Assembly (NCBI GenBank): GCA_965215195.1
Contig: CBDCDC010000002.1
Span: forward strand, 2,656,001 to 2,720,000
Length of the DNA: 64,000 nucleotides
Direction: 5' to 3'
From: Candidatus Latescibacterota bacterium
GTDB taxonomy: Bacteria > Latescibacterota > UBA2968 > UBA8231
The notes under the pieces are model-generated. The model was not told where the DNA came from. It ran no database searches and saw only the letters and a program-made list of their open reading frames with translations. The number at the start of each line of letters is the position of its first letter. Positions within the stretch are counted from its first letter, which is position 1. Positions 32,972 through 63,692 of the stretch are shown one piece after another. A program made the translations under genes and the position numbers.

Positions 32972-33732
32972 TGCCGGCCATCCAAGTTGAGCGGCTCTCC
33001 TTTGCCTACGAAGAGAGGCCGATCCTCAACGATATCTCGCTGGAGATCCCGGCGGGGCAGTTCACCGTTCTCCTCGGCAAAAACGGCAGCGGCAAATCAA
33101 CCCTCATGCGCATTCTCGGCGGTTTCCTCGACTTCGAGCGCGGCAAAGTGCGTATCATGGGGGAGGAGCTCCGCTCCTTCTCGTCTCGGCGGCGGGCCCG
33201 CGTCCTCGGCTACCTGCCCCAGCACCACCGGCCGGTCTTTCCCTTTTCCGTGCAGGACGTGGTTCTGACCGGCCGCGCCAGCTACGTCACCTACGTCCCC
33301 AAGCAGGAGGACGTGGAAATCGGCATCGCCGCGCTGGAGCGGGTCGGCATTATCCACCTGAAGGAGCGCCCGTACACCGAGCTGTCGGGGGGCGAGCAAC
33401 AGCTCGTCCGCATCGCCCGGGTTCTGGCCCAGCAGCCCCGTCTCATCCTCCTCGACGAACCCAGTTCGCACCTCGACTTCCTCAACCAAGCGCACCTGCT
33501 GCGCCTAATCCGCGAGTTGGTCGATGCCGACCTCACCGTCCTCGCCGTCCTGCACGACCCCAACAGCGCCTTCCTCTACGGGGATCACTTCATTTTTCTC
33601 AAGGATGGTGCAGTAGAGCGGCTACCAGCGGCCGAACGGCCGTGGGACCGCGACTTCTTGGAGCGGATCTACGACACTGAGATGGATTCAATCCCCTACG
33701 GCGACCGCGCTCTCGTGGTGCCGAAGGGGTGA
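32959..33732 (+). CDS. FepC/BtuD-type ABC ATPase
   Basis: GKNGSGKST, LSGGEQQ, LLDEP, VLHD. Confidence 0.92.
   Translation: MGDLVPAIQVERLSFAYEERPILNDISLEIPAGQFTVLLGKNGSGKSTLMRILGGFLDFERGKVRIMGEELRSFSSRRRARVLGYLPQHHRPVFPFSVQDVVLTGRASYVTYVPKQEDVEIGIAALERVGIIHLKERPYTELSGGEQQLVRIARVLAQQPRLILLDEPSSHLDFLNQAHLLRLIRELVDADLTVLAVLHDPNSAFLYGDHFIFLKDGAVERLPAAERPWDRDFLERIYDTEMDSIPYGDRALVVPKG
33640..33732 (+). repeat. 93-bp perfect direct repeat (3' end of the ATPase up to its TGA); second copy at 34669-34761
   Basis: Base-by-base identical ccgtgggaccgc...ccgaaggggtga. Confidence 0.95.
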
Positions 33733-33845
33733 GGGAACGTGCCGGAGATGAATGCACGTGAGGCATTGTAAGCCGCTGGCCTCCCTATGGCGGCGATCGA
33801 GAAGCGGGTTACCTCAATAACGACGCCTGCGATTCACAATTTGAC

Positions 33846-34475
33846 TCAGGTACGCCTAAACCCTTCGCAAATGCGAGGAATGCAAATACTGCCCCAGCAC
33901 TTCTGGGTCAACTCAGCAGCCTGTGGCGGAAATGCGCCATGTACGACCTTAATGCCTCTTGTTCCCAGAAATTCCACTACGGGAACGAAATCTCGGTCGG
34001 AGGAAGCCAGAACGGCTACATCGTAGTTGGCGACCCAAGCCAGACTGATCATCTCAGTCGCAATTCTCGTGTCAATGCCTTTTTCTTCAGTGCCGCGCAT
34101 GTCCGCGTTGCATCTCGGGCACTGGGACACGACTTGGTGACAGGCCGGGCAGGTCGGCCCCCTGTGCTTGCGCCTCCTCGGCACCATTGTGACGTGTACA
34201 CCGGGAAATGTATTGAGCGTGCGAGTTGACCAGCGGCGCAACTCCTGATCGCGGTCGCTATATGAACCATAGACATTCATTCCCTGATAATCGACATGTG
34301 CAGTCTCGTCGATAATAAGCAAGGCTTCCCGCGCCAAATGTGGACCCAAGGCACGCCAGTCGATCTTGAAATCGGGCCGAGCTTCCCTTACGGAAAGCTC
34401 AAAATTCCAGAAGTCGACGAACACCCTTACGCGAACGCGATGTTCAGCAACGAGCTCATCACGGCACTCATCCAA
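33846..34475 (-). CDS. NYN domain (LabA/DUF88, PIN-like) ribonuclease with CxxC-CxxC insert
   Basis: VFVDFWN, EEKGID, YDVAVLASSDRDFVP, G.KV; CPAC...CPRC. Confidence 0.88.
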   Translation of the reverse strand: MDECRDELVAEHRVRVRVFVDFWNFELSVREARPDFKIDWRALGPHLAREALLIIDETAHVDYQGMNVYGSYSDRDQELRRWSTRTLNTFPGVHVTMVPRRRKHRGPTCPACHQVVSQCPRCNADMRGTEEKGIDTRIATEMISLAWVANYDVAVLASSDRDFVPVVEFLGTRGIKVVHGAFPPQAAELTQKCWGSICIPRICEGFRRT

Positions 34476-34486
34476 ACTTTAACTCC

Positions 34487-34524
34487 AAAAATAAAAACAG
34501 GGACACCCACAAGAGTGTCCCTGT
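34487..34524 (-). terminator. Intrinsic terminator immediately upstream of the NYN start
   Basis: 10-bp stem acagggacac/gtgtccctgt followed on the minus strand by ttttattttt, then GGAG RBS. Confidence 0.75.
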
Positions 34525-34547
34525 CGCATACGCATAGAGTAATAATA

Positions 34548-34589
34548 ATCAAGTGGTCGTTGATCCTGTCTGCCAGGCGACTTCTTGAT
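34548..34589 (-). ncRNA. Candidate structured leader/antitoxin RNA hairpin
   Basis: Nested pairings ATCAAG/CTTGAT, GTCG/CGAC, CCTG/CAGG. Confidence 0.4.
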
Positions 34590-34768
34590 GGATTTTAATA
34601 CTATTCAAAGTAATTGATCATGCCGCTGTTGTCCACACTCCATCGGGTAATCTTTGGATTTTTAGCGACCGTGGGACCGCGACTTCTTGGAGCGGATCTA
34701 CGACACTGAGATGGATTCAATCCCCTACGGCGACCGCGCTCTCGTGGTGCCGAAGGGGTGAACGACCA

Positions 34769-35845
34769 TCAGCCGCTGTGCAGGACGAGGTCGCGGGCGT
34801 CGCCGCTCAGCGGCAGCTCAACCCAAGCACCGCCGGCGCGGTGGGAGGCGTGAAAGGCGATAATCGCCTCCAGAGTACGCACGGCCTCCCCTGCGTCGTA
34901 GGAGAAGGGTCCCGCCCCGTCGAGCCAATGGACGATCTCGGCAACGGCCCGGTCCATGCCGCTACCGGGGAAATCGTCGGGCAGGTACTCGCGGTCGTCG
35001 CCGCGCACGATCTCGATGTCGCGGCCACGGCAGATAGCATAGCCTTCGGTGCCGTGGAAGCGGTGGCGCATAGGCGCGGTGCCGTAGTCGGCTGCGTCAA
35101 CCGTGCAGATCAAATCGCCCCTCGGTGCGCCGGCGGCCGCGGGCAAGTCGCGTCCGAGGCGCAGCAGGCCCCAGCCGCCAGGATCGGCGAAGGCTGCGCC
35201 GCGGCAGTCGGATTTCCCCGACAGGTCAAGGGTGCCGGAGACCGCAGTCACCGGCAGGCCAGTAGCCATCTGCACGGCGTCGATCATGTGCGTACCCACG
35301 TTGCCGAGGCGGCCAGAGGTCCACTGGAGCGAGGCCGAGGTCAGGGTGCCGAGGACACCAGCGGCGATGCGGTCGCGCAGCACCCGATAGCCGGGGTGGA
35401 AGCGCAGGTTGTGGTTGATGACGAGCAGGGCACCGGCCTCGTTACAGGCGGACAACATGCCCTCGGCCTCGGTGACCGTCGCCGCAACGGGCTTTTCGCA
35501 GTAGATGGCGCGGACACCAGCTTCCACTGCCGCTTGGGTGATCTCGGCGTGGACGGGCGTGTACGTGGCAACCGAGACGATGTCGAGGGGCGCGGCCGCG
35601 CCGAACATCTCGCGCCAGTCGGCGAACACGGGCACGCCATAGCGCGCGTGGAAACGCGCGCGTCGCCCGTCGTCGCGGCTGCTACCAGCGACTAGATCGA
35701 CCCGGTCGTGGTTGCGCAGTGCCCCTACGTGCGTACCGTCGAGATCCTCAACGCGCTGGCCGAGGGCGTCGCCCGAGACCTGATCCGCACCCCCGATAAA
35801 GCCCAGCCCCACGATTGCTGCACGGTATCTCGTTTCTCCTGTCAT
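34769..35845 (-). CDS. Gfo/Idh/MocA family oxidoreductase
   Basis: IVGLGFIG, YCEKP, GTHMID; aggagg RBS. Confidence 0.9.
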   Translation of the reverse strand: MTGETRYRAAIVGLGFIGGADQVSGDALGQRVEDLDGTHVGALRNHDRVDLVAGSSRDDGRRARFHARYGVPVFADWREMFGAAAPLDIVSVATYTPVHAEITQAAVEAGVRAIYCEKPVAATVTEAEGMLSACNEAGALLVINHNLRFHPGYRVLRDRIAAGVLGTLTSASLQWTSGRLGNVGTHMIDAVQMATGLPVTAVSGTLDLSGKSDCRGAAFADPGGWGLLRLGRDLPAAAGAPRGDLICTVDAADYGTAPMRHRFHGTEGYAICRGRDIEIVRGDDREYLPDDFPGSGMDRAVAEIVHWLDGAGPFSYDAGEAVRTLEAIIAFHASHRAGGAWVELPLSGDARDLVLHSG

Positions 35846-35875
35846 AGCATTCCTCCTAGACATTGCCCCAAATCA

Positions 35876-37024
35876 TCAGACCCCGAGGCCCAGTACGCGC
35901 GCACAGGTCCCTCCCATGATCGCAGCCAGATCCTCGGCCGAGAGGAACTCGCAGTAGTCCTCAATCCAGCGGCGAGACTGGCGATAGGTGCAGAAGCGGT
36001 TCTGGAAGGGCATGTCAGTACCCCACAGCAGCCGCTCGGCCCCGATGCGCTCAACCATCTGCTCAAGCGTCGGCCACAACTCGCGGTACGGGTAGTCAAA
36101 CAAGTCGCCAAGGCGCACCGGGAAGCAGACCTCTAAGCTCAGATTCGGATTGGCGAAGGGAGCCCATATCTCGTCGGGCAGCTCGATCCGGCTCGGGGAG
36201 CCGGAGGGATCGTCGTCGAGGAAGAGACGCCACGGGAAGCCATGCGTGAGGCTGCAAAGCGTTTCCGGGTAGCGCTCCATCCAGCGCACCAAGATGTCGA
36301 GCTCAGCTAGGTAGCCGCGACGCCGGCTCTCCACGGTCTGCAACACCGACGCTTCGCCCGGCCCGGTGCCGAGCGTGAAGAACACCGGCACGCCGAGCGC
36401 GGCCACCGCCTCCCAGAACGGACGCAGGTGCTCCCCATCCCACGGATCGGAGCGGTAGTAGTAAGCGTGGGGCGGGTTGAACTTGATGGCGTGCAGGCCG
36501 TGCTTCTCGACAGCAGCGACCGTCTCGGCGATGACGGCATCAAGTTCGCCGGCCAAGCGCCACTCATCGACCGGAGCCATCGAATAGATGCGCTCTGGAT
36601 CGGCAGCCACCGACTCCGCTTGGAAGGCGGGATCGCGGCCCAGCATGGCATCGACGTGCAACAGAACCTTATCGACGCCGGCGTAGTCCATCTCGGCCAG
36701 CAGATTGTGGGGCGTGTATTCCAAGTGGGGCAAGTTGGGCGGATAGAACTGCTTGGTGAAGTCCTCGCCGTCAATCGTCCACACCACCCGTCCCTTGTCG
36801 TGGTCAACGCGGAAGTTGACGTCGGGCAAGTTGTCGAAATCCATGGCCCCACCGGGCGCTGCCAGCACATCCGCAGAGGCCGGTGCGCGGTCGCGGATGC
36901 GCCAAGCGGGCTGGTGGTGAGAGGCCTGACCGCCCTGGACCCAGCGCAGGTGGTCGGCCGCGGTGGGATGCCCGGCAGGAGAGTCAGCCGGGGGGAAGCA
37001 GTAGGCGTGGGAGTCGATAATCAT
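35876..37024 (-). CDS. Amidohydrolase_2 family protein
   Basis: IIDSHAY, MDYAGVDK, LLWGTDMP, IMGG. Confidence 0.88.
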   Translation of the reverse strand: MIIDSHAYCFPPADSPAGHPTAADHLRWVQGGQASHHQPAWRIRDRAPASADVLAAPGGAMDFDNLPDVNFRVDHDKGRVVWTIDGEDFTKQFYPPNLPHLEYTPHNLLAEMDYAGVDKVLLHVDAMLGRDPAFQAESVAADPERIYSMAPVDEWRLAGELDAVIAETVAAVEKHGLHAIKFNPPHAYYYRSDPWDGEHLRPFWEAVAALGVPVFFTLGTGPGEASVLQTVESRRRGYLAELDILVRWMERYPETLCSLTHGFPWRLFLDDDPSGSPSRIELPDEIWAPFANPNLSLEVCFPVRLGDLFDYPYRELWPTLEQMVERIGAERLLWGTDMPFQNRFCTYRQSRRWIEDYCEFLSAEDLAAIMGGTCARVLGLGV

Positions 37025-37401
37025 GGCAGTACCTTGGCAGTCGCGGCCGGAGGTCAGGAGAGTTCCCGCGCAAATTCGCAGGTCCAATCGACGACCCGGA
37101 AACCGTAGAAGGAAGGGTATATCTCTTAGAGAATGATGTCAACGAGTAGTGGGTCTCTTTGAAAATTACACGGGCGGCGGGGGTGGACGGATCGTGCGGC
37201 ACACTCGGCGTCCGAGGACTAGCGTAAAAATTCAAAGGGACCCACCACGAATCTTCTACGCCGAATTTAAGTATCGAGCGCAGCTTGACCCACCATTAGA
37301 AACGCCGTTTATTCGGCCCATCTACTGTCGCCTCCAACCTTGCGCAACCACGGCTCCCATCTCCCCAAGACATTCTCTGTGCCGAAATCACCCGTCGAAT
37401 C

Positions 37402-37767
37402 ACGCCTAAGAAAATCAGAGAATTAATTCAGAACTTGAGAAAAGCGGGATTTTACGAAATTTCTGGTGGAGGCAAAGGATCGCATAGAAAATTTGCCCAT
37501 GATCGCTATCGCGGCGTCGTTACACTCAGCGGAAATTTTGGCAATGACGCAAAACCATATAGAACAGCAAGTCCAAAGCGCAGTGAAGGAAGTTAAAAAA
37601 TGAAAGCCATTGATCGGTACCATAAATGGGTGGAGTGGAGTGAAGAAGACCAAGTATATATCGGCCAATGTCCGGACTTGATTACGGGAATTCACGGCGA
37701 CGATCCGCTGCAGGTTTATGAAACTGTGTGACGTCATAGCAGACGTTATTCACCATTTCGAGTCTAA
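37402..37767 (+). pseudogene. Degenerate hicA-hicB pair
   Basis: ACG instead of ATG, then PKKIRELIQNLRKAGF...GKGSHRKF.H...DAKPY (frameshift); hicB from 37600 (RYHKWVEWSEEDQVYIGQCPDL..GIHGDD) is frameshifted and cut by a MITE. Confidence 0.8.
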
Positions 37768-37911
37768 GAAGCGGTCTGAAAATTCCGGGTATCGCCCTTG
37801 TATGTAGCAAACAATCGAGGATCGAGGGCGTCTCGCCCTCGAAAAACGCGCCATCCGAGGGCCTCTCAACCGCTGCTCAACGCGGTTCGCCGAGGGTTTG
37901 CAGACCGCTTC
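37768..37911. mobile_element. MITE family B (IS5-like ends), 144 bp
   Basis: TIRs gaagcggtctgaaaa / tttgcagaccgcttc, flanked by taa/tta; homologue at 59420-59557. Confidence 0.72.
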
Positions 37912-37949
37912 TTAACGGAAACGATTCCCCATCCCCGAAAGGCTTTCGC

Positions 37950-40610: not shown

Positions 40611-40628
40611 GGCCGGCGAGAGGATGCG

Positions 40629-41879
40629 ATGAGTTCTTGTGCTGTTAAAGACGTCGTGCGCACCGTGCTACACGTGCCGTTCCACGCACGCTGCGCCGAC
40701 GCCATGGAAGTCTACGGGCCGGGTTGGTCCATCGTCGAGCTGATCGAAGTAGAGACCGAGGGCGGCGTTGTCGGCATTGGCGAGACGATTCAGGGATATA
40801 CGTGGGGCCACTCGCGCCAAGCGCAGTTTGCCCGCGTGCGCGGTCGGAATGTTTTCGAGGTGCTGTGGGACGACTCGCTGGGGGCCGGCTTGCAGATGGC
40901 GCTTTTCGACGCGGCCGGCAAGCACCTAGGCGTACCCTGCCACCGGCTGATGGGGCCGCAGCACCGCGACGCCTGTCCGGTTTCTTGGTGGGCGCAAAGT
41001 ATGCCACCCGCAGCGTGGGCGGCCGAGGCTCGGACGGCCGAGGCGCATGGTTTTACCACCATGAAGGTCAAGGCGCGGCCTTGGTACGATATTGCGGCGC
41101 AGTTGCAGGCCGTGGACGAGGCCACCTCTCAGCACTTCAAGTTAGATGCCGACTTCAACACCATGTTGCTGGGGGTTGACCAAGCCGCCCCGCTCATCGC
41201 GCGCTTAGAGCGAGACAACGCCTGTCTCGCCATCGTTGAGTCGCCGATTCCGCAGGACGACGTGGAGGGCAACAAGCTCCTGCGGCGCAAGATCCAATCT
41301 CCAATCGCCATGCACATAGGCCAGCCGCCGCCCATGACGGCGATCCGCGAGGGTGTGTGCGATGGGTTTGTCATCGGCGGCGGAGTGAGCCGCGTCTTGA
41401 GCGACGGCAACTTGGCCGCGCGGGCGCACCTGCCGTTCTGGTTGCAGATGGTGGGCACTGGCCTGACCGCGACCTTTGCGGCGCACTTGGGGGCGGTGCT
41501 AAAGCAAGCGCGCTGGCCGGCGATTCCCTGCGTCAACATCTATTCGCACGTTTTGGTGCAGGAGTTCGCCGTGGAGGGGGGGCATCTGCGGGTGCCGGAG
41601 GCACCGGGCTTGGGGGTTGAGTTGGACCGGGAGGCCGTGGAGCGCCTGCGCGTCGAGCCGGACTTTGCAAAAGCGCCGGTGCGCCAAATACACGCCGTGC
41701 GCTGGCCCGACGGTCGGGTCCTCTGGGCTGCCGACGGCAGCTACCGCAGCGATTTCACTGCTGGCAAGCGAACCGGGTTCTTGCCGGGGATGCAGCTAGA
41801 GGTGCGGCTCGACGACGGCAGCGAAGAATTTGATCGAGAGTACCGGGAGCGGTTTCCGGGGCGAGCGAAGAGACGCTGA
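40629..41879 (+). CDS. Mandelate racemase/muconate lactonizing enzyme (enolase superfamily) protein
   Basis: G.GET, ALFDAAGK..G.P, K.K, DFN, E.P, P..PGLGVELD. Confidence 0.88.
   Translation: MSSCAVKDVVRTVLHVPFHARCADAMEVYGPGWSIVELIEVETEGGVVGIGETIQGYTWGHSRQAQFARVRGRNVFEVLWDDSLGAGLQMALFDAAGKHLGVPCHRLMGPQHRDACPVSWWAQSMPPAAWAAEARTAEAHGFTTMKVKARPWYDIAAQLQAVDEATSQHFKLDADFNTMLLGVDQAAPLIARLERDNACLAIVESPIPQDDVEGNKLLRRKIQSPIAMHIGQPPPMTAIREGVCDGFVIGGGVSRVLSDGNLAARAHLPFWLQMVGTGLTATFAAHLGAVLKQARWPAIPCVNIYSHVLVQEFAVEGGHLRVPEAPGLGVELDREAVERLRVEPDFAKAPVRQIHAVRWPDGRVLWAADGSYRSDFTAGKRTGFLPGMQLEVRLDDGSEEFDREYRERFPGRAKRR
41733..41878 (+). repeat. 146-bp direct repeat (3' end of the enolase gene); second copy at 42996-43141 with 3 synonymous mismatches
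   Basis: AGC/AGT, TTG/TTA, GAC/GAT are the only differences I found. Confidence 0.93.
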
Positions 41880-41920
41880 GACGATTCGATGAATGGACTA
41901 CTGTGACGTTGATGGAGGCC

Positions 41921-42298
41921 TCAACTCGTGTATTGACGCAACCATATTTTGACTGAGCGACTCGTTTCGGGCGAGCGGCTCAGTGCGGCTCTTATATGAG
42001 ACAGATCGTCTCGGGAAAGACTGCCTGCTTCCTTGATCTGCCGGAGTACCATGCGGTCAATTAATTTTTTTACAGGTGCAATGCGGGTATCGTGGATAAA
42101 ATGGGTGCGGTTCGTAGAAGGCAAGCAGGTCGGCTCTATAATGACTACATCCTCACCCTCGTCGTCTTCATAGAGCGGGTGCAATAGTGCCACCAGTACC
42201 TCCTGAGCACGAGAAGGATCGGTCAGAATTAGGAACAGCCGAAAAGGCTGTGCGGTCATGCGAAGGATCGAGCCAGCCTTCAACACTATGAAAGCCAC
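41921..42298 (-). CDS. Putative toxin, PemK/MazF-like
   Basis: Beta-rich G....RLFLIL....VLVA pattern and C-terminal GSLSRDDL..IRAAL helix; overlaps the Panacea gene. Confidence 0.55.
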   Translation of the reverse strand: MAFIVLKAGSILRMTAQPFRLFLILTDPSRAQEVLVALLHPLYEDDEGEDVVIIEPTCLPSTNRTHFIHDTRIAPVKKLIDRMVLRQIKEAGSLSRDDLSHIRAALSRSPETSRSVKIWLRQYTS

Positions 42299-42858
42299 TC
42301 GTCGAGTTGGTTGCTCACCTTTACGCGCGCTACGACTTCCTGTATATAATCGTCCTCTTTTCCCAAGGCCGTGAGAATGTCCTCTAGGGGCAACGGCCGA
42401 CTAGCCGGCCCCACAGGATCGGCACCGGGGTCTTGCCATTCGGGAAGATGATCGTGGGTATACTGGACCAATTCTTGCCAAGGCCAACTGCCAAAATGTG
42501 CTACCACCTCTTGAGCGATGCCGATCTCGTTTTCCGACATTGCCTCAATCGTCAGGGGATCTTGTACCAGTTCTATATGATAGGTCCCCTTTCGGCGAAT
42601 ATGGCTCTGCCAGACTGATTCACGCTCCGGCCACGGTGGCTCTCGAATAAGGTCATAGGTTCGGCTTAAAACGGGACCATGAGCCATCGACACATAGACA
42701 TCGGTAGAAATCGGCCATCCTCGCTCGTTTAGTGCCGCGCGGTCCACCAAGTACATTAGCTTTATGAGCTTGATATACTCCATCGAACCGCCGGCCTCGC
42801 GCAACAACACAACGGCCAGTTCGGTGACCTTTCGGAGATTAAAGCGCAAGTTTTCCAT
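42286..42858 (-). CDS. Panacea/SocA (DUF4065) antitoxin-domain protein
   Basis: KLIKLMYL.DR...G.PI....Y..M.HGPV....YD; L..YTH..PEW. Confidence 0.88.
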   Translation of the reverse strand: MENLRFNLRKVTELAVVLLREAGGSMEYIKLIKLMYLVDRAALNERGWPISTDVYVSMAHGPVLSRTYDLIREPPWPERESVWQSHIRRKGTYHIELVQDPLTIEAMSENEIGIAQEVVAHFGSWPWQELVQYTHDHLPEWQDPGADPVGPASRPLPLEDILTALGKEDDYIQEVVARVKVSNQLDEWLS

Positions 42859-43214
42859 AGGGCATCTTTAGGAAAAGGGTATATCTAGTTAGGTACCAAT
42901 AAACGAAAACCGTGTCAATTCTAAAAGGCTGCCTCATGCGGCCAGCCCATTGGGCCGATGCGGATCAGACCCAAACGGACGGAGCATGTGGGCCTGACGG
43001 CAGTTACCGCAGCGATTTCACTGCTGGCAAGCGAACCGGGTTCTTACCGGGGATGCAGCTAGAGGTGCGGCTCGACGATGGCAGCGAAGAATTTGATCGA
43101 GAGTACCGGGAGCGGTTTCCGGGGCGAGCGAAGAGACGCTGCGAGTTGGAAGGTTCCCATGCGACGAACTGACTGTGTTTTGAGGTGCCGTCACGCAACT
43201 TTAGCTAAAAGAGG

Positions 43215-43251
43215 AAGCGGCCCGTGTCGAGAGACATTGGCCGCTTTTTTT
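43215..43251 (+). terminator. Intrinsic terminator after the displaced enolase 3' copy
   Basis: aagcggcc / ggccgctt stem followed by a T-run. Confidence 0.75.
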
Positions 43252-43479
43252 GTGCTGTTGGCCTTGCGGAAACGCTGCTGAATAATACCCCCTCACTTGA
43301 GCACGGCGACGGCCACGCCCATGGCTGTGATGAGGATGCTGGTGCAAGCGATGAGCATGGCCATCAGCCGGGGTTCTGGGGGTAGTCGCCTATGTTACCG
43401 TGGAGGATGAACACGGTCGCCTGCTGGGTACGCAGCATGCCGCAGACGGTCTCGTCATACCACGACAGGGGGCGGAGGC

Positions 43480-43716: not shown

Positions 43717-43765
43717 AGGGTCTCCTTTCGGGGGATAGGGAAGGGAACGTATAGACTTAGCCCCA

Positions 43766-53312: not shown

Positions 53313-53521
53313 TCGAAATTCTGCTCAAGCACTAAAGCGCTAGATTCCCTACTGCTCAAGCACTGGCGACGGATCCCAAGCGGCCGTTTGGCGATCCGTC
53401 CCAACCCGCGCCGCATGTTGCCCGTGCGGCCTTCGTCTGTACGCCGTGACCGTCGTCCGCCATGGCGGCCGGTTCCTGTTCCTTTCTATCCACCCCTTTA
53501 TTTCGTAGAAGGAGGCAAACA

Positions 53522-54910
53522 ATGCCTTTATGGAAGCGAATAAACGCCCTCGGTGTCGTCGTTTTAGGCGTAGTGGTTACTTGGATGGCCTGTTCCGATC
53601 CGCCGGTCGCGCCGGTGCCGGCGGGCAAAGCCTTGGGGCAGGCCGAAGCCGATAGCACACCATCGGACGCTGCAACCGTCTCGTTTGCCGATGCCAACCT
53701 AGAGCTTGCGGTGCGGCGGACGCTGAACAAGCCGGAAGGCCCGCTGACCGCCGACGATCTGGCGTCCCTGACGAAGATCGACGTAGAACAGCAAGACGTC
53801 TCAGGTATTGAGAGCTTGGCCGGCCTCGAACACGCGACAGCGCTGGACACGCTGAACCTGTGGGGCAACCAGATTGCGGATTTGAGTCCATTGTCCGGCT
53901 TGACCCAGTTGACCCACCTGAACTTAGGGCACAATCAGGTGGCGGATGTGGGTGCGTTGGCGGGCTTGACCAATTTGAAATGGTTGAGTCTGTGGGGCAA
54001 CGAAGTGGCGGACGTGAGTCCGTTGGCAGGCTTGACGAAGCTGACCTACCTGAACCTGTGGGGCAACGCGATTGAAGCGGTGAGTGCGTTGGCGGGGTTG
54101 ACGAAGCTGATCTCGCTGGACTTGGGGCACAACGCGGTGGCGGATGTAAGTGCGTTGGATGACCTGACCCGGCTAGACTGGCTGGGCTTGGTGGATAATC
54201 CCATTCGCCAACCGGACCTCGCCGCACAGGTTCCCACCTTGATAGAAGGGGACGTCAAGGTCTCCGTCGTCCTGCCGAACCCGCAACCACCGGCTCCACC
54301 CCCGGCCCCGGCTCCACCCCCAGCCCCGGCTCCACCCCCGACTCCGGCTCCACCCCCAGCCCCGGTAGTCATCTCGTTCGCCAACGCCAAATTAGAGCAG
54401 GCGGTGCGGCTGACGCTGGGTAAACCGACAGGCGCACTTACATCCGACGATCTGGCGTCCCTAACGCGGCTTGATGCAACAGATCTAAGCATTGAGAGCG
54501 TGGCCGTCCTCGAATACGCGACGGCGCTGACTTGGCTGGACCTGTCCAGCAACGCGGCTCTTGCGGATTTGAGTCCGTTGGCGAGCCTGACCAAGTTGGA
54601 AACGCTGAGTCTGGGTAACAACACGTCCATCGGGGATGCGGGGGTGGCTTCGTTGACGAGCCTGACCAACCTGACATCTCTGACTCTGGGTGCCACGTCC
54701 ATCGGGGATGCGGGGGTGGCTTCGTTGACGAGCCTGACCAACCTGCAAACGCTGTATCTGAGTAGCACGTCCATTACGGATGTGAGTCCGTTGCTCAGTC
54801 TGACCAAGTTGAAATCGCTGTTTCTGATTAACATCCCTACCCTCAGTGCCGAGTCAATCAACACACACATCCCCGCCCTCAAAGCAGCAGGCGTTACGGT
54901 CCATCAATAA
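53522..54910 (+). CDS. Internalin-like leucine-rich-repeat lipoprotein with proline-rich linker
   Basis: aggagg RBS, lipobox WMAC, two F.D/N..LE.AVR caps each followed by LxxLxLxxNxIxDLSPL repeats; (PAPPPA)n linker. Confidence 0.92.
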   Translation: MPLWKRINALGVVVLGVVVTWMACSDPPVAPVPAGKALGQAEADSTPSDAATVSFADANLELAVRRTLNKPEGPLTADDLASLTKIDVEQQDVSGIESLAGLEHATALDTLNLWGNQIADLSPLSGLTQLTHLNLGHNQVADVGALAGLTNLKWLSLWGNEVADVSPLAGLTKLTYLNLWGNAIEAVSALAGLTKLISLDLGHNAVADVSALDDLTRLDWLGLVDNPIRQPDLAAQVPTLIEGDVKVSVVLPNPQPPAPPPAPAPPPAPAPPPTPAPPPAPVVISFANAKLEQAVRLTLGKPTGALTSDDLASLTRLDATDLSIESVAVLEYATALTWLDLSSNAALADLSPLASLTKLETLSLGNNTSIGDAGVASLTSLTNLTSLTLGATSIGDAGVASLTSLTNLQTLYLSSTSITDVSPLLSLTKLKSLFLINIPTLSAESINTHIPALKAAGVTVHQ

Positions 54911-55164: not shown

Positions 55165-55192
55165 GTAGGGCATAACGATCGTTATGCCCTAC
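55165..55192. repeat. GTAG-type REP-like perfect palindrome
   Basis: gtagggcataacgatcgttatgccctac. Confidence 0.75.
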
Positions 55193-55259
55193 TTTGCTAG
55201 ACGCGCAAGGAGCACCAACGCCTGAATGGCGCGTAACATCAGTTACTTAGCAACGCTTC

Positions 55260-57721: not shown

Positions 57722-57722
57722 G

Positions 57723-58895
57723 CTAGTGATCGGGGATCAACTGCTCGTAGCCGGCGAGTTCGGGCTTGTCCATCAGGGTAGCCAAGTGTGCGCCGAAGGC
57801 TTCCTGTGGGAAGACGTAGTCGAAGCTCGGTTCGCCTTGGCATTCGTAGTCGGGATAGAATTGACAGATGTTGGCTGGGCTGATCATCACATGGTTGACG
57901 GTGACCGCGGCCGGCACGTCGCGGCCAGCTAAGCGCATTAGGCTCAGCGGGATGAGATAGTTGCCGTAGCGCTCGGGGAAATAGGCGACCGAGGCGATAA
58001 AGTGCTCCTCGGCGACCATGGTCTCCAGCTCGTCGGCCCCCTTGCCTACGACCAGCGCGTCTTGGCCGCGCCCCTGCTGCTGCACAGCGCGCAACATGCC
58101 GGAGACCGACTGGTCGTTGATGGCGGTGATCAGAATCGGTGCGCCTTGGGGGATGCGGCCGAGTGCGTTGCTCATCTGTTGGAAGGAGTATTGCAGCGTG
58201 TTTTTGGTGTCGATGCGGATGATGCGCTCGGGCGGGAAGCCGGGCAGGGAGGCGAGGAAGCCGGCGAGCTGGCCCTCGGTGCGCATGGCCGGGATTGCGC
58301 CCGACTGGGGCAGCTCGCCGACGACGAAATACCCCTCTTGAAGTGCCCGATCGCCAAAGCGCGCTTTGGCTGCCTGCGCCAGATAGGAGCCGCCCATAAA
58401 GCCGGAGCGGGGGTTGTTGGCGCCGAAGTACGTAGCCCCCGGCATGGGTATGTCGATGGCGACCACCCCGATCTGCTGGCGGTTGAAGTGCTGCATGATG
58501 GCCGGGCCGAAGTTGACGTCGGTTTGGAACTCAATGCAGAAGTCAACTTGGCGGCGGGCAAAGCTCTCGGCATTGGCCAAAGCAGTCGGCCCGTCGAGCC
58601 GGTTGTCGGCGATCAGCAATTCGATGCCAGCGGCCTCGGCATTGCGCTCGATGCTCTTTTCGACCTTGATGCCAAAGCTGATGTCGCGCTGTAGGTTGGC
58701 GAAGCCAAAGACTAGGGCTTTGCCGTTTTTAGGGGGCGAGTGGTGCGCGGCTTCGGCGGCCATCGCCCGCAGAGTGTCAGGTGGAAGCGGCAGACCGTCA
58801 AAAGAAGCGGGGTCAAAGCCGTGGAAGCCTTCGCTTGATGCGGGGACCGGGGCGAGGAACAGACAAGCGAAGAGAATGAGTCGGATCGAGATCAT
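57723..58895 (-). CDS. Sugar ABC substrate-binding protein
   Basis: Signal peptide; periplasmic binding protein type I pattern; heads the operon. Confidence 0.85.
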   Translation of the reverse strand: MISIRLILFACLFLAPVPASSEGFHGFDPASFDGLPLPPDTLRAMAAEAAHHSPPKNGKALVFGFANLQRDISFGIKVEKSIERNAEAAGIELLIADNRLDGPTALANAESFARRQVDFCIEFQTDVNFGPAIMQHFNRQQIGVVAIDIPMPGATYFGANNPRSGFMGGSYLAQAAKARFGDRALQEGYFVVGELPQSGAIPAMRTEGQLAGFLASLPGFPPERIIRIDTKNTLQYSFQQMSNALGRIPQGAPILITAINDQSVSGMLRAVQQQGRGQDALVVGKGADELETMVAEEHFIASVAYFPERYGNYLIPLSLMRLAGRDVPAAVTVNHVMISPANICQFYPDYECQGEPSFDYVFPQEAFGAHLATLMDKPELAGYEQLIPDH

Positions 58896-59033
58896 AGATG
58901 CGCTTTCGTTTGGAATTGGGCTGAGAATATACGGAGCGGCTAGCGGGTGGCTCAAGGCGCGATTGCTTTTCAGGGACGATGCGGTTGGTTACTATTGAGC
59001 ACAAAGAAGCTACACAAAGAAAGGAAATATCAT

Positions 59034-59297
59034 ATGGAATTCGTTATCGTCTGGATTCTATGTGGGATTATCGGAGCGGTAGTTGCCACTAATAAGGGAC
59101 GAAGCGGTTGTGGCTGGTTTGCACTTGGCGTGTTATTTGGTCCCCTTGGTCTTGTTTTGGCTTTAGTCGTTCCTAAAAATCAGGAAGTGGTGGAAGAAAA
59201 AGCCGTTCAAAGTGGTGAGATGAAAAAGTGTCCATACTGTGCTGAACTGATAAAAACAGAAGCGGTCAAGTGCCGCTACTGTGGAGAAGAGATTTAA
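59034..59297 (+). CDS. Small membrane protein with C-terminal zinc ribbon
   Basis: TM-KGRS..GWF-TM then KKCPYCAE.IK.EA.KCRYCG; low GC. Confidence 0.82.
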   Translation: MEFVIVWILCGIIGAVVATNKGRSGCGWFALGVLFGPLGLVLALVVPKNQEVVEEKAVQSGEMKKCPYCAELIKTEAVKCRYCGEEI

Positions 59298-59307
59298 CGG
59301 AAAAAGG

Positions 59308-59399
59308 CTTACTACACGACACCAGCCACAGCCTTCCAAGGAGCGAGGGCGGGACGCCCTCAATCCCGGACATAGCGGGAGTAGGTGTAGTGTACTTAG
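59308..59399. mobile_element. MITE-like element, family A (copy 2)
   Basis: Ends cttactacacgacacc / ggtgtagtgtacttag; internal cgagggcgggacgccctcaatcccggac as at 3143-3170. Confidence 0.62.
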
Positions 59400-59419
59400 A
59401 GGAAAAGGTCTCGTGCTAA

Positions 59420-59557
59420 GAGGCTGTCTGAAAACTCTGGTGGTCGTCCCTTGCGTCTAAACGATCTCGGCTGGATGGCATCCCGCAAGGTGAAGCGCGG
59501 GAATGGCGGCGACCCTGCTTGTTCAACACGACTCAAGGTGGGTTTTCAGACCGCTTC
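59420..59557. mobile_element. MITE family B (copy 2), 138 bp, TAA target duplication
   Basis: taa-gaggctgtctgaaaac ... gttttcagaccgcttc-taa. Confidence 0.72.
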
Positions 59558-59591
59558 TAAGACAGCGACCCATCGCTAACAGGAGAGAATT

Positions 59592-60728
59592 ATGCTGACC
59601 AAAGAAGGATGCCGCACGCGGCAGCAACGTCTGTGTGCGCGGCTGGCCGAACTCGACATTGACGCGGCCGTGATCAACCATCCAAAGGAAATCTACTACT
59701 TCACCGGAATTATCATCCCCGAAGAATTTCCCGGCCCGCCAGCGATCTTTTGGCTGGGGGCCGATGGGCGATCCTTGCTGATCGCGCATACCGACGAAGG
59801 CGAGCCGTGCGCCGACGAGTGTTTCACCTTTTCCTTCAACGTCGGCGGCACAGTAACGCCCGACCTGCGCGAGGTGATAAGCGGGCTAATCGTCGATGTG
59901 CTGCGCGCCAAAAAGCCGGCCGCCGGTCGCTTGGGCTGGCAGAGCGAGTTTTTGCCGCGTCGCTTGGGACTGGCGGTTGAGGAAGGGTTGGGCAAAACGC
60001 CCGCATGGTTCGCAGTCGACGACCTGCTCGCCGACATGCAGGAGGTCAAGGACCCCGACGAAATCGAGCTATTGCGCAAGGCCGTGCAGGTCGATCTGGC
60101 CGCTTATGCCGCGGCCGAAGCGGCGATGGCTCCCGGCGTCAACGAGCTGGAGGTGCTAGCGGCCGCTCAGCGAGCAGCGCATCTTGCAGCCGGTGAAAAG
60201 GTTTTCCACGACGGCGATTACCAGTGCGGCGAGCTGGGCGGTTTTGCGCGCAATCGCCCGATTGAGGCCGGGGAACTCTACATCATCGACGCTTGGTCGG
60301 TGTACCGCGGCTACTGGGCCGACTTGTGCCGCAGCTTTGCGGTGGGCCAGCCGACCGAGGTACAGCAGTCCGTGTTCGAGCACGTCAAAGGCTTTCACGA
60401 CCGCGTCGGCGACTATTTGCGGCCGGGCAAGGATGGCCGCGAGTGCGCGGTGGCCATGGACGCCTATATCCGCGAGCATCCCAAACTGGCCGACGTCGGC
60501 TTGATCCACCACGCCGGGCACAACATCGGCCTGCGGGCGCACCAGATGCCCGATCTCAACAAGGAGCGCGGCGGCACCTTGCGGGTGGGCAATGTGGTCT
60601 CGGTCGAGCCGGGGGCCTATATCCCGCAGGCGCGGGCCGGGGTGCGGCTGGAAAACATGTACCTGATTACCGAAGATGGCTTGGAAAACTTGTCGCCGTA
60701 TCCGCTGGAGTTGGGAGCGCACTGTTGA
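59592..60728 (+). CDS. Xaa-Pro peptidase family (M24B) protein
   Basis: VKD.DEI, IIDA....GY.AD..R, H..GH.IG, VSVEPG.Y, GVRLEN. Confidence 0.9.
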   Translation: MLTKEGCRTRQQRLCARLAELDIDAAVINHPKEIYYFTGIIIPEEFPGPPAIFWLGADGRSLLIAHTDEGEPCADECFTFSFNVGGTVTPDLREVISGLIVDVLRAKKPAAGRLGWQSEFLPRRLGLAVEEGLGKTPAWFAVDDLLADMQEVKDPDEIELLRKAVQVDLAAYAAAEAAMAPGVNELEVLAAAQRAAHLAAGEKVFHDGDYQCGELGGFARNRPIEAGELYIIDAWSVYRGYWADLCRSFAVGQPTEVQQSVFEHVKGFHDRVGDYLRPGKDGRECAVAMDAYIREHPKLADVGLIHHAGHNIGLRAHQMPDLNKERGGTLRVGNVVSVEPGAYIPQARAGVRLENMYLITEDGLENLSPYPLELGAHC

Positions 60729-61525
60729 GCGAGGTGCTCGAATTTGCCGAAGACCTCGCCCGGTGCGCTGGTGTGATAATCGCCCAAGCACGGGCGGACC
60801 GGGTGCTGGACCTGAGCTACAAGGAAGGGATAGAGCTGTTGACGTCGGCCGATTTGCAGGCCGACCAGTTCATCCGCAGCGCGATCGAAAAGACCTTTCC
60901 CGCACACTACATCCTCTCCGAAGAGTCCTCGCCCGCCCTTGCAAATCCCGCCCAACTGCGCGGCCCCTTGTGGATCATCGACCCGATTGACGGCACCGTC
61001 AACTACGCCTATAACCAGCACCAAGTAGCCGTGTCTATCGCCTTTGCCGAAGGCGGCCAAGTGCAGGTCGGGGTGGTGCGCTGCCCGTTTGTAGAAGAGA
61101 CCTTTACCGCCCGGCGCGGTGCGGGTGCTTGGCTCAACGGCCGCGCCATTCGGGCCAGCAAGTGCAGCGAGCTACCCCGCGCCCTGATTGGCACGGGCTT
61201 TCCCTACGCCGCCGAGGCCAGAGTGGCGCTGGTGGAGCACCTGCGCCGCGTCCTCGGGCACTGCCGCGACATCCGCCGCGTAGGCTCGGCCGCTATTGAT
61301 CTCTGCTGGGTGGCAATGGGCCGGCTCGACGGCTTTTACGAGACGCTCAAGCCTTGGGACTTGGCGGCGGCAGCCCTGATTGCGCGGGAAGCAGGCGCTC
61401 GCGTCGGGCACTTACAACCCGTGCAGGGCGAGCTGCCGGAAGAATTGGACGGCCGCGACTTGGTCGCGGCTGCGCCGGGAATCTACGAACCATTGGTCGC
61501 GCTGTTGCGCGGGACCCCATCGTAG
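60725..61525 (+). CDS. Inositol monophosphatase family (SuhB-like)
   Basis: SEE, WIIDPIDGT.NY, TGFPY, R.GSAA.DL, PWDLAAA; TTG overlaps the upstream stop. Confidence 0.92.
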   Translation: MSEVLEFAEDLARCAGVIIAQARADRVLDLSYKEGIELLTSADLQADQFIRSAIEKTFPAHYILSEESSPALANPAQLRGPLWIIDPIDGTVNYAYNQHQVAVSIAFAEGGQVQVGVVRCPFVEETFTARRGAGAWLNGRAIRASKCSELPRALIGTGFPYAAEARVALVEHLRRVLGHCRDIRRVGSAAIDLCWVAMGRLDGFYETLKPWDLAAAALIAREAGARVGHLQPVQGELPEELDGRDLVAAAPGIYEPLVALLRGTPS

Positions 61526-61560
61526 AGACGACGCTTGTATGTTGAACATCCTCATGGCAC

Positions 61561-61630
61561 TCGGGCGCACTTTGACAAGCTCAGTGCGCGTTGAGCTATC
61601 GTGGGTGCTGAGCCTGTCGAAGTGCCCCGA
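61561..61630. repeat. REP-like inverted pair
   Basis: gcactttgacaagctcag ... ctgagcctgtcgaagtgc. Confidence 0.68.
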
Positions 61631-61672
61631 ATCGACGCGTCTAGCAACTCTTATATAAGGAGACGACAACCC

Positions 61673-62833
61673 ATGAAAATCAGCGACATCAAAGCCTATC
61701 CTACGTGGGTCGGCCACCGCAATCAGCTCATCGTCAAGGTCGAAACCGACGAAGGCATCCACGGCTGGGGCGAGTCCGGGCTATCCGGGCGCGAGCTCGC
61801 CGTAGTGGGCGCAGTGCGGCACTACCGGGAGTTTTTGCTCGGGCGCGACCCGCGCGAGATCGGGCGGCTCTGGCAGGAGATGTACCGCGGCCAATACTTT
61901 GAAGGCGGGCGGGTGTTGACCGCGGCGATTTCGGCCATTGACATCGCCTTGCACGACGTGGTGGGCAAGGCCCTCGGGGTGCCGGTGTACCAGCTTTTGG
62001 GCGGCAAGCAGCGCGAGTGGGTGCCCTGCTTTGCGACGACCGGAGCACCGGACCTAGAGACCTTGGTCAAAAACTGCAAGCTGCTGTTGGACAAGGGGTG
62101 GGACGTGATTCGCACGGGAATCGCCCAGCGCAAACAGTACGACGACGAGCGGCTGTTCGAGCCGCGCGAGACCATCGGCATCACGGCGGCTTGGCTGACG
62201 GAAGTGCGCCAAGAAATTGGTCCCGACCCGATCTTGGGCATTGACTATCACCATCGGCTGACGGTTGCCGAGAGCGCGTCGTTCTGCCAGAAGATGCGGC
62301 CGGGGACGCTCGACTTCCTCGAAGAACCCATCCGCGACGAGTGCCCGGAAGCCTACGAATCGCTCCGCACCATGACCGACGTGCCCTTTGCCATCGGCGA
62401 GGAGTTTGCCAGCAAATGGCAGTTTTTGCCCTATCTCGAACGGGGCATCGCGCAGTTTGCGCGGATCGACGTGTGCAACGTCGGCGGGCTGACCGAGTCG
62501 ATGAAGGTGGCGAGCTTGGCTGAGTCGCACTACATCGACCTGATGCCACACAATCCGCTGGGGCCAATCTGCACCGCCGCGACCGTGCATCTGGCGGCGG
62601 CCGTGCCCAACTTTGCGTGGCTTGAGCATCGGGTGACGCCGACCGAAGCAGGGAAGTTCATGGACGAGGAATTGTTTCCGGTGCAGTGCGAATTGGTGGG
62701 TTCCATGTTGAAGGTGCCCGAGGGGCCGGGGTTGGGCGTGGAGTTCAACGAGGAACTGGCCGCGGAGCAGGAGTTCAAGTTTTGGGAAGCGCCGCATTTG
62801 CGCCGGCGGGATGGGTCGCATACGAACTGGTAG
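61673..62833 (+). CDS. Galactonate dehydratase-like enolase superfamily protein
   Basis: VKVETDEG.HGWGE, IDIALHD..GKALGVPVYQLLGG, DYH, EEP, GEE, PHNPLGP; aaggag RBS. Confidence 0.92.
   Translation: MKISDIKAYPTWVGHRNQLIVKVETDEGIHGWGESGLSGRELAVVGAVRHYREFLLGRDPREIGRLWQEMYRGQYFEGGRVLTAAISAIDIALHDVVGKALGVPVYQLLGGKQREWVPCFATTGAPDLETLVKNCKLLLDKGWDVIRTGIAQRKQYDDERLFEPRETIGITAAWLTEVRQEIGPDPILGIDYHHRLTVAESASFCQKMRPGTLDFLEEPIRDECPEAYESLRTMTDVPFAIGEEFASKWQFLPYLERGIAQFARIDVCNVGGLTESMKVASLAESHYIDLMPHNPLGPICTAATVHLAAAVPNFAWLEHRVTPTEAGKFMDEELFPVQCELVGSMLKVPEGPGLGVEFNEELAAEQEFKFWEAPHLRRRDGSHTNW
62674..62823 (+). repeat. 3' end of the dehydratase gene, repeated at 63595-63669 with an internal 75-bp deletion
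   Basis: gtttccggtgcagtgcgaattggtggg..atgttgaaggtg and cgcatttgcgccggcgggatgggtcgcatac present in both copies. Confidence 0.9.
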
Positions 62834-63006
62834 TGGCTATTTTGAATGTTCCTCCAGATTAGTTGAACTTTTTTGGAGTTTACTCCAGAATGGTTCAGTG
62901 AATTCGATGTGGCAACTAAATATAGTTGCTCCTCTATACAGGGGGCATACATTCTTTTTTAGGAATGCGCTTAGATGCCTAAAGCCCTTGAACAGGAGGG
63001 ACTGAT

Positions 63007-63486
63007 ATGAAAGGCATGATGACTTATAAGGGTTACACCGGCTCGGTGCACTACGACGACGACGAGCGGATTTTCTACGGCAAGCTCGAATTTATCCGCG
63101 ATCTGGTCAATTACGAGGGGACGGATGTGGACTCACTGCGCTCCGCTTTTGAGGAAGCAGTGGATGGCTATCTCGACCTATGTCGGCAGGAAGGACGACA
63201 ACCCGAACAGCCGTTCAAAGGCAGTTTTAACGTGCGGATGAGCAGCCAACTACATCGGCGGGTAGCCCTATGCGCCAAGGAGAAGGGCGCAAACCTCAAC
63301 CAAGTGGTCAAAGAGGCGTTGGAGCAGTACTTGGCTGGCGTAGCCCCCCCTTCGCCAAGTGCCTCGCGTTCCTATTGGGAGCTAATGGCAGATATACGCG
63401 CTCGACAGCAGGTGCGTGGCCATAAACCCCCAACTCGGGAAGAGGTTGATGCCGCCCTACACACTGAGCGGGAAAGCTGGGAGTAG
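63007..63486 (+). CDS. HicB family antitoxin with extra C-terminal VapB-like tail
   Basis: YKGY.GSV.YD....FYG...AFEEAVD.YL..C...G..PE.PFKGSFNVR....LH; extension ends ...REEVDAAL..ERESWE. Confidence 0.85.
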   Translation: MKGMMTYKGYTGSVHYDDDERIFYGKLEFIRDLVNYEGTDVDSLRSAFEEAVDGYLDLCRQEGRQPEQPFKGSFNVRMSSQLHRRVALCAKEKGANLNQVVKEALEQYLAGVAPPSPSASRSYWELMADIRARQQVRGHKPPTREEVDAALHTERESWE

Positions 63487-63692
63487 TAACCTATGCGGCT
63501 TTACCTAGATCTGGATCGCTTTAGCGGTATTAGATATGAATTGGTAACAGATGGGCCAAGGAAAACTCCCCAGCCTGAATGACTTGAGTTAAAGGTTTCC
63601 GGTGCAGTGCGAATTGGTGGGGTCAATGTTGAAGGTGTCGCATTTGCGCCGGCGGGATGGGTCGCATACCCTAGCGGCGATGCAGGCAGCCG

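Follow-up and report, generated by a model that had tools for sequence, protein, structure and literature searches.

How three genes of one bacterial chromosome each came to be followed by a small cassette, and then by a second copy of their own 3' end, is the question raised by a 64,000-nucleotide (nt) stretch of DNA from a Candidatus Latescibacterota bacterium (contig CBDCDC010000002.1, positions 2,656,001 to 2,720,000), hereafter the window. A preliminary description, made from the sequence alone, had reported integrase-free toxin or nuclease cassettes bracketed by long gene-tail repeats at three loci and had suggested homologous recombination as the route. Our analysis finds such brackets at about 20 loci of the genome, with repeat boundaries enriched at stop codons and with predicted addiction or defence genes as the usual cargo, and it points to homology between alternative versions of one gene slot as the guide in at least five events. 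The genome comprises 6.13 Mb in 2 contigs with 60% guanine-plus-cytosine (GC) content and is designated G000; the comparison set contains 31 species genomes of the same genus, G000 counted in. R1 denotes the tail within the functional host gene and R2 the orphan tail copy beyond the cargo. Sequencing runs were examined as Logan contigs or unitigs, and cargo families are matches above the curated cut-off in Pfam, NCBIfam or PADLOC, from which functions are predicted.

Self-comparison of the window returns all three repeat pairs at the places first described, and the three pairs have no mutual similarity. Open reading frames (ORFs) and Pfam matches agree that the host genes, an ABC ATPase and two MR_MLE genes, are intact. 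Cargo GC lies at 0.46-0.56 versus ~0.62-0.68 in the flanks, as had been claimed, and the repeats finish exactly at the stop codon at locus 1, 2 nt beyond it for the core repeat of locus 2 and 10 nt before it at locus 3. The locus-1 copies differ by a single mismatch in 96 nt. The features of locus 1 are as follows.

32959..33732, plus strand: host gene 1, an intact ABC-transporter ATPase of 257 amino acids (Pfam ABC_tran, E 8e-31)
33637..33732, plus strand: R1, the ABC gene's final 96 nt with the TGA stop, 99% identical to R2
33846..34475, minus strand: cargo, a predicted NYN-domain nuclease of 209 amino acids (Pfam NYN, E 1e-13; PADLOC HEC-09, E 3.5e-12)
34666..34761, plus strand: R2, the orphan ABC tail, abutting the native convergent neighbour
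34769-35863, minus strand: that neighbour, a GFO/IDH/MocA oxidoreductase gene convergent with the ABC gene

The insert amounts to 933 nt (33733-34665). Orthologues of the host gene are 88-93% identical in 15 relatives, and empty alleles in G018, G022 and G001 contain a single repeat followed by the same flank. Overlapping matches place the ABC gene against the oxidoreductase gene with one repeat copy in 14 relatives, and all three that were mapped agree. Among 24 same-genus relatives searched, the NYN cassette is common only to G000 and G002, where the joint is the same except for a ~20-nt indel and both repeat copies are present. Its distribution does not follow kinship: G002 is not the nearest relative by flank identity. 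Unitigs from runs X17 and X20 cross from the end of R1 through the cargo to the start of R2 (33703-34698).

A third run, X1, contains a 490-nt contig identical to the NYN cassette at window positions 34153-34642, and its contigs flanking locus 1 differ from the window at 17 of 1232 and 43 of 2829 letters. An identical cassette in a diverged run may reflect recent exchange between strains or a mixed sample.

Locus 2 repeats the layout with a different host gene and a two-gene cargo.

40629..41879, plus strand: host gene 2, an intact enolase-superfamily (MR_MLE) enzyme of 416 amino acids (Pfam MR_MLE_C, E 5e-23)
41733..41881, plus strand: R1, the tail of host gene 2, 149 nt, 97% identical to R2
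41921..42298, minus strand: cargo, a putative toxin of 125 amino acids overlapping the SocA/Panacea gene
42286..42858, minus strand: cargo, the predicted SocA/Panacea antitoxin (Pfam SocA_Panacea, E 2e-20)
42996..43144, plus strand: R2, the orphan tail, followed by native downstream DNA with a terminator-like hairpin

By BLAST, homology of R1 extends left to 41710 and right to ~41907, the latter ~28 nt further across a 12-nt indel. Of the cargo labels first given, NYN, Panacea and HicB hold by Pfam; the 'PemK-like' label is a lead, since the 125-residue Panacea partner has zero family matches in Pfam, NCBIfam and PADLOC and its nearest Pfam-bearing Atlas cluster is PemK_toxin at 0.89. Host gene 2 lacks the cassette in 20 relatives (4/4 mapped agree), and in G043 the end of the gene and the R2-side downstream DNA form one uninterrupted stretch, with the Panacea cassette placed further downstream and the second tail copy absent. 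The cassette together with R2 is present in G004 and G007. A unitig of run X20 (41849-43033) likewise crosses the cargo from the end of R1 into the start of R2. In runs X1 and X2, the strain present has flanking contigs ~1.4% off the window, and there the bins at 42124-42925 are uncovered and the flanks covered; no joint across the locus-2 cassette is among the joints listed for these runs, and a 753-nt X1 contig, of which just the final 448 nt match 42999-43446, is not counted as an empty site. With unitigs spanning both inserts and the same layouts in other genomes of the genus, loci 1 and 2 are not assembly artefacts.

Beside locus 2, the window at 43293-43364 (minus strand) contains an ORF for a 23-residue hydrophobic peptide, carried by a 76-78-nt element of which every genome of the genus has multiple copies. 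The element stands 8-9 nt behind host gene 2 in empty alleles, and G022 has three copies ~300 nt apart. A small membrane peptide is one possible reading, a type I toxin-like gene another.

Locus 3 is more intricate, and its structure bears most directly on how a bracket forms.

61601..62833, plus strand: host gene 3, an intact MR_MLE-family dehydratase of 410 amino acids (Pfam MR_MLE_C, E 2e-48; MR_MLE_N, E 3e-21)
62674..62823, plus strand: R1, 150 nt of dehydratase tail with its boundary 10 nt before the stop
62839..62894, plus strand: first copy of a segment X, 56 nt of native downstream DNA, 89% identical to the second copy
63007..63486, plus strand: cargo, a predicted HicB-family antitoxin of 159 amino acids (Pfam HicB, E 9e-16)
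63595..63669, plus strand: R2, the orphan dehydratase tail, 43 + 31 nt with 75 nt deleted, its left edge being the blunt joint of two stacked alleles
63693..64000, minus strand: 3' part of an AAA_14/DUF4143 ATPase gene (Pfam DUF4143) continuing to 64859, the resident cargo of the second stacked allele

The repeat pairs 62674-62716 and 62793-62823 with 63595-63637 and 63639-63669. Segment X recurs behind the DUF4143 gene at window coordinates 64858-64913, just beyond the window, and the full order is dehydratase-X-HicB-tail, then the joint, then R2-DUF4143-X-Z. Inspection of the relatives reveals the components of this arrangement as separate alleles. G019 has the empty order gene-X-Z. Eight relatives by match table have gene-X-HicB/PIN-tail-Z without a second gene tail (4/4 mapped agree: G011, G009, G022 and G005), and G045 has gene-DUF4143-X-Z with HicB absent. 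G043 carries both cargoes without repeats (gene-DUF4143-X-HicB/PIN). Window locus 3 is thus a HicB/PIN allele joined to a DUF4143 allele via a partial gene tail. An independent stack in reverse order occurs in G042, where duplicated gene fragments measure 159 nt at 94% and 77 nt at 99% identity and a 71-nt downstream piece is also duplicated.

Relative to at least eight relatives, the window also has a 333-nt deletion at 63509/63510 that removes a PIN toxin gene from the HicB cassette; the additional 333 nt in G009 encode a PIN protein (E 6e-11). The HicB-family gene of the window is accordingly predicted to be an orphan antitoxin whose PIN partner has been deleted.

To place the three loci in a genome-wide context, the final 600 nt plus 60 nt downstream of each of 3725 gene-like ORFs was used as a query. 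Copies were accepted when direct, partial, no more than 8 kb away, 40-400 nt long, at least 85% identical and with at least 30 nt inside the gene, with no more than 2 matches per gene. The 25 rows obtained, minus 7 that represent paralogue arrays or very short matches (C1:349843, C2:90661, the 47-nt match of C2:1368307, C2:2381538, C2:2383118, C2:2774534 and C2:4540840), plus 2 added by hand, gave 20 loci, of which 2-3 are doubtful. Window locus 3 is one of those added by hand, the filter having missed it owing to its split R2 copy. Across the 20 loci, repeats span 52-273 nt at 86-99% identity and inserts 0.44-3.1 kb, with one doubtful insert at 7.2 kb. For tail copies located downstream, the boundary falls within -15 to +5 nt of the stop in 19 of 40 and within +6 to +35 nt in a further 6, versus 1 of 28 within -15 to +5 nt for copies located upstream. 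For the analogue at gene 5' ends, copies located upstream have their boundary at -5 to +15 nt of the start in 4 of 25 and at -35 to +15 nt in 8 of 25. The enrichment at stop codons is strong relative to a uniform boundary (binomial p 2.5e-18) and holds relative to upstream copies (Fisher p 8e-5) and to the 5' analogue (Fisher p 0.016). The recurrence, stop-codon enrichment and cargo bias that the preliminary description anticipated are therefore borne out.

By family assignment, at least 14 of the 20 cargoes are predicted toxin-antitoxin, restriction-modification or defence genes, distributed as follows.

NYN (PADLOC HEC-09): 1 locus
Panacea pair: 1 locus
HicB: 1 locus
DUF4258: 3 loci
Gp49/HigB with HTH_37: 1 locus
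PIN pair: 1 locus
Fic: 1 locus
Rpn-like nuclease (lead only): 2 loci
Type II restriction-modification: 2 loci (L002 and L003)
AAA_14/DUF4143 ATPase (PDC-S01): 1 locus
No family: 3 loci
Weak, other or not examined: 3 loci

The restriction-modification families are N6_N4_Mtase and Eco57I/TaqI_C, with PADLOC REase_II, and a DUF4143 paralogue at L014 matches PADLOC PDC-S01 at E 4e-88. Bracketed copies account for 3 of 5 DUF4258 and 2 of 23 DUF4143 genes, together a minority; none of the 24 PIN matches listed is bracketed, in a search that missed the PIN gene of L012. Counts for this background cover DUF4258, DUF4143 and PIN. The Rpn-like assignment is a lead from a sub-threshold TIGR01784 match (E 2.9e-4, 20.8 bits versus a cut-off of 52.1). 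An all-versus-all comparison of the 20 cargoes revealed no common ends, the sole likeness being that between the two Rpn-like cassettes.

Two cargo families call for separate description. At L002:1607-2047 (minus strand), the restriction gene is cut to the last third of the 382-position REase_II profile, and relatives are ~750 nt longer; with this gene truncated, G000 retains an orphan methylase. The Rpn-like family comprises proteins of 309-389 amino acids with a region of E/Q/A-rich repeats, has 11 tblastn matches in G000 including fragments, and combines its sub-threshold Rpn/putative-transposase match with Atlas neighbours bearing DUF4351/DUF2887. Copies lie at L016:1838-3007 (minus strand), L008:1666-2595 (minus strand), C1:480524-481471 and elsewhere, and two are repeat-bracketed cargo.

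The stacking seen at locus 3 is not confined to the window. An initial check for interleaved repeats with 1.5 kb of downstream DNA found one locus and a 25-nt match at another; extension to 8 kb gave 4 of the 20 loci, namely window locus 3, L013, L012 and L007. At the last three, the DNA immediately before R2 (373, 48 and 129 nt, respectively) copies DNA found ~1.9-2.2 kb downstream, on the far side of a second cargo; these additional cargoes comprise two DNA methylases and one pair of no known kind. For L013, the relatives present the alleles A-x-B, A-x-Fic-B, A-cargo2-x-B and A-cargo2-x-Fic-B, and six relatives have the Fic cassette at the same site without a repeat bracket. The joints are blunt or show at most 3 nt of microhomology, are mutually unrelated and have no conserved motif. 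Together with G042, the stacked events total five, and in each the insert is itself an alternative allele of the same locus, which argues that the gene tail guided these events rather than a process blind to homology. At least five events thus appear to have been guided by homology and not by a site-specific enzyme, the incoming DNA bringing its own gene end. At the same time, the presence of the same cassettes at the same sites without repeats in many relatives indicates that the bracketed unit is not the primary mobile element; in the locus-3 and Fic cases the bracket would be a by-product of joining two alternative slot alleles. The recombination route first proposed is supported in its use of homology and not supported in taking the bracketed unit as what primarily moves.

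From these results we propose, with the case evenly balanced in our judgement, that the brackets are left behind when homology-guided recombination adds one version of a gene slot to another. Short spaces behind conserved genes would act as cassette slots, in which the small addiction or defence module varies between strains and species, examples being toxin-antitoxin pairs, restriction-modification units, PDC-S01 ATPases or Rpn-like nucleases. DNA of a relative would bring the host gene tail and its own cargo, at times with a portion of the neighbour downstream, and would recombine via the gene tail alone. We infer this step without commitment to one intermediate: a circularised fragment integrating by a Campbell-type single crossover, one-ended invasion completed by end joining, and allelic replacement within a spontaneous tandem duplication could each serve. 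The incoming allele would be added before the resident allele with no replacement, such that the functional gene keeps R1 and the resident tail becomes the orphan R2 beside native downstream DNA. The repeat boundary would then sit at the stop codon because the two alleles cease to be alike there. Addiction modules may favour addition, since a recombinant that lost its resident toxin-antitoxin or restriction-modification unit to replacement would die; the 'resistance to replacement' of such modules has been a subject of earlier work. As to how DNA would enter the cell, ComEC is present in the genome, and this nearly universal protein decides nothing. Later, one of three fates would follow: gene conversion would homogenise the copies, recombination would delete the cassette exactly, or the orphan would decay by deletion.

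Evidence for these later fates comes from several loci. At locus 1, identity between R1 and R2 reaches 99% within G000 and 97% within G002. Between the two genomes, which have one joint in common, the repeat differs by ~10-13%, and copies compared across genomes with this old insertion are ~88-90% alike. This pattern argues that R1 and R2 keep recombining, in concerted evolution. The tail of host gene 2 comes in two allelic types ~20% apart across the genus, the difference being restricted to ~90 nt (41719-41810) inside the repeat. In G007, the functional R1 is of the divergent type and only 73% identical to its own R2, which is of the common type and 87-92% identical to other genomes; in G004, the cargo-linked gene end is in R1 and the native end in R2. 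Three genomes with an empty site, G041, G021 and G006, have the divergent type as well, and such a patch within the repeat is expected in empty genomes if cassettes are lost by recombination between R1 and R2. The restriction-modification locus records orphan decay: one ancestral joint is common to G000, G011, G004 and G008, with an orphan of ~84 nt, and the orphan measures ~15 nt in G043, G005 and G003. G009 is empty and single-copy at this locus. At L016, the orphan is 83% and the functional copy 91% identical to orthologues; this comparison of copy age was tried as a test of mechanism and set aside, as it reports orphan decay and does not discriminate between mechanisms.

Blunt and microhomology joints are also typical of spontaneous tandem duplications, which raises the prospect of a purely local history, with duplication followed by internal deletion or divergence and no transfer, or of an assembly artefact from a mixed population, for which the assembly contamination estimate of 8.5% might speak. 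We give this explanation almost no credence. The two units of each stack carry unrelated cargo, cargo GC is below that of the genome, cassettes such as NYN in G002 are patchy across the genus independently of relatedness, and the junctions are reproduced by unitigs of two runs and by other genomes.

Mobility genes were then considered. The profile matches in the genome number 4 for PF00589, 0 for PF00239, 0 for PF00665 and 27 for PF01609 (DDE_Tnp_1), and no member of these four families, to which the search was confined, falls inside the window or less than 10 kb from any of the 20 loci. The absence of a recombinase from the window, as first reported, is thereby confirmed for PF00589, PF00239 and PF00665. 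The four tyrosine recombinases (C2:323093, 601544, 3814421 and 4728116) are each remote from any locus. These counts bear on whether the loci are remnants of integrase-mediated or trans-mobilised integrative elements, with the repeats as attL/attR and the integrase lost or located elsewhere. A restored gene with an orphan tail by the native flank does mimic islands in the 3' ends of tRNA and protein genes, and G007, with a foreign functional tail and a native orphan, looks as such an element would leave it. We nevertheless regard this origin as very improbable: besides the scarcity of recombinases, with serine recombinases and rve integrases both absent, no common sequence or att core unites the 20 repeat pairs and cargo ends, repeat length varies from 52 to 273 nt, the joints lack a conserved motif, and 20 different target specificities would be needed. 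An integron gene cassette was likewise rejected, there being no common terminal sequence and no adjacent recombinase (no attC structure model was run). No Rfam family was found in 32000-64000.

The footprint itself is of a known kind, 'insertion with long target duplication'; what is new is the toxin-antitoxin and defence cargo, the number of loci and the stacking of alleles. Such insertion was reportedly described for restriction-modification genes by Nobusato et al. in 2000 (Gene 259:99). The likeness is close: in both, direct repeats some tens to hundreds of bp long enclose small gene units devoid of mobility genes, the site is empty and single-copy in a related genome, and the target gene is left whole; 2 of the 20 loci here are real restriction-modification units. 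The differences are that cargo here is mostly toxin-antitoxin or other defence genes, that ~20 loci occur in a single genome, and that in at least five events the apparent duplication is a gene tail brought by a competing allele and not a copy of the target. The precedent had been given as Helicobacter pylori; the kind is indeed known and is broader than claimed, for in its excerpted text the study of Furuta, Abe and Kobayashi (2010, NAR 38:2428, PMC2853133) extends the footprint to restriction-modification types I-IV in many phyla, notes that repeats often cover start or stop codons, and leaves the mechanism open with a suggestion of double-strand breaks. The excerpted part of the review by Mruk and Kobayashi (2013, PMC3874152) ascribes the mode to restriction-modification systems only. 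Our literature search found no report of the footprint with toxin-antitoxin cargo, and the supplement of Furuta 2010 may hold cases beyond restriction-modification. Set against the definition in that study, which asks for repeats above 30 bp, the repeats are 96, 149 and 150/75 nt in the window; single-copy empty sites exist in relatives at loci 1-3 and at the restriction-modification locus; and inserts are below 20 kb with no other mobile-element gene of the families searched. Both a restriction and a modification gene are found in the insert at 2 of the 20 loci (L002 and L003) and at none of the three in the window.

The suggestion of breaks leads to a rival that we consider possible, with a limited chance of being right overall, and that stays live for the primary arrival of cassettes. 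In this scheme, staggered cuts 50-270 nt apart near a gene end, made by a cargo-encoded or trans-acting and perhaps Rpn-like nuclease, would be followed by cassette ligation and gap filling, both copies would derive from the recipient, and selection would keep the insertions that leave the gene whole. The clean joint of cargo to R2 with no downstream duplication at 16 of the 20 loci fits this scheme, as do the many nuclease cargoes (type II restriction enzyme, NYN, PIN and Rpn-like), the occurrence of one Rpn-like cassette family at two unrelated genes with separate repeats, the different cargo with its own 61-63-nt repeat pair at the restriction-modification site of G012, and the double-strand-break link proposed in Furuta 2010 (PMC2853133, excerpted text). 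The native spacer to the next gene is 32 nt or less at about half of the loci, where selection by itself could fix the boundary at the stop. What staggered cutting leaves unexplained are the five stacked events, whose inserts are themselves rival alleles of the locus they entered and whose repeats interleave. HigB/Gp49, Fic, DUF4258 and HicB are not DNA nucleases by family, and the same cassettes occupy the same sites without duplication in many relatives. We know of no enzyme that makes such staggered cuts. The five stacked events contradict a derivation of both copies from the recipient, and so does G007, whose R1 and R2 belong to two allelic types; at other loci the copies are homogenised.

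The proposal that brackets arise by joining two versions of a slot must itself answer to several results that weigh against it. No interleaved repeat is found at 16 of the 20 loci, including window loci 1 and 2, and stacking therefore does not settle their origin; if fragments had random ends, downstream DNA should often accompany them, which these clean joints do not show. The Rpn-like cassettes face opposite ways behind two unrelated host genes and have separate repeat pairs, and allelic homology cannot account for such arrival at a new site. Nor does allele stacking explain why a cassette should start right at the stop in the donor allele. The NYN cassette without R2 was found in no relative, the sole other carrier (G002) having both copies, and no relative has the L012 PIN cassette beside the same host gene. 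No Ku gene was found in the genome, which leaves the end-joining step with no obvious enzyme but decides nothing by itself, and the part assigned to addiction is wholly conjectural. The run contigs examined showed neither circles nor excision products, and no read of an empty site.

Other known systems help to define what is unusual here. Campbell-type insertion-duplication is the single-crossover integration of circular DNA with chromosomal homology and is a standard tool in naturally transformable bacteria. As in that process, a homologous segment flanks the inserted DNA and loss proceeds by recombination between the copies; the difference is that the event here would be natural and involve predicted circles of allelic chromosomal fragments with 50-270 nt of homology. 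Locus-derived sequence beyond the repeat, which Campbell-type integration would carry, is present in 4 of the 20 G000 loci and in G042 and absent in 16 of the 20. Integrative islands and prophages in gene 3' ends likewise restore the gene with element-borne sequence and displace the native tail to the far end, in contrast to the present loci, which have no integrase or common core, inserts of 0.4-3 kb and a different repeat per site. Cassette-like allelic variation of defence loci is reportedly exemplified by the Escherichia coli hsd/ICR locus (Sibley and Raleigh, 2004), and the minimal mobile elements of Neisseria are alternative cassettes between conserved flanks. Both resemble the present slots in that alternative small defence cassettes between conserved genes are exchanged by homologous recombination in the flanks; those systems replace alleles without duplication, whereas alleles here are added in tandem.

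The restriction-modification footprint has been recognised since 2000 without a mechanism, and this genus, with about 20 loci per genome and 31 species genomes whose alleles range from empty through single and double to stacked, opens the mechanism to testing. Stacking indicates that the 'target duplication' is, at least sometimes, the tail of a rival allele brought by homology, and it links the spread of defence and addiction genes to ordinary homologous recombination and to the resistance of modules to replacement. For annotation, orphan gene tails by small low-GC cassettes would be read as recombination-prone defence slots and not as broken genes or att sites. A bolder version, which we offer tentatively and think unlikely, holds that conserved gene tails are used, through homology, as attachment points by addiction and defence cassettes that move without a recombinase. 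Replacement being lethal, rival alleles would enter by single crossover and stack, with an orphan tail left over; recombination between the tails would then set free circles of tail plus cargo able to re-enter any genome that has the same gene. If true, this would provide a general, self-sustaining route for defence-island growth and shrinkage without any mobile-element enzyme, as well as the missing mechanism of insertion with long target duplication.

Self-comparison of the window also revealed repeats of other kinds. Positions 17400-27600 contain many diverged families of 45-300-nt direct repeats within very large minus-strand ORFs that appear to encode repeat-domain, surface-type proteins. 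Periodic repeats of 66-72 nt occupy 53850-54770 within an ORF of 482 amino acids (53462-54910) and have a leucine-rich-repeat-like pattern. Finally, the segments 513-1089 and 3367-3943, 2854 nt apart and 80-94% identical, cover two paralogous genes of 184 amino acids each.

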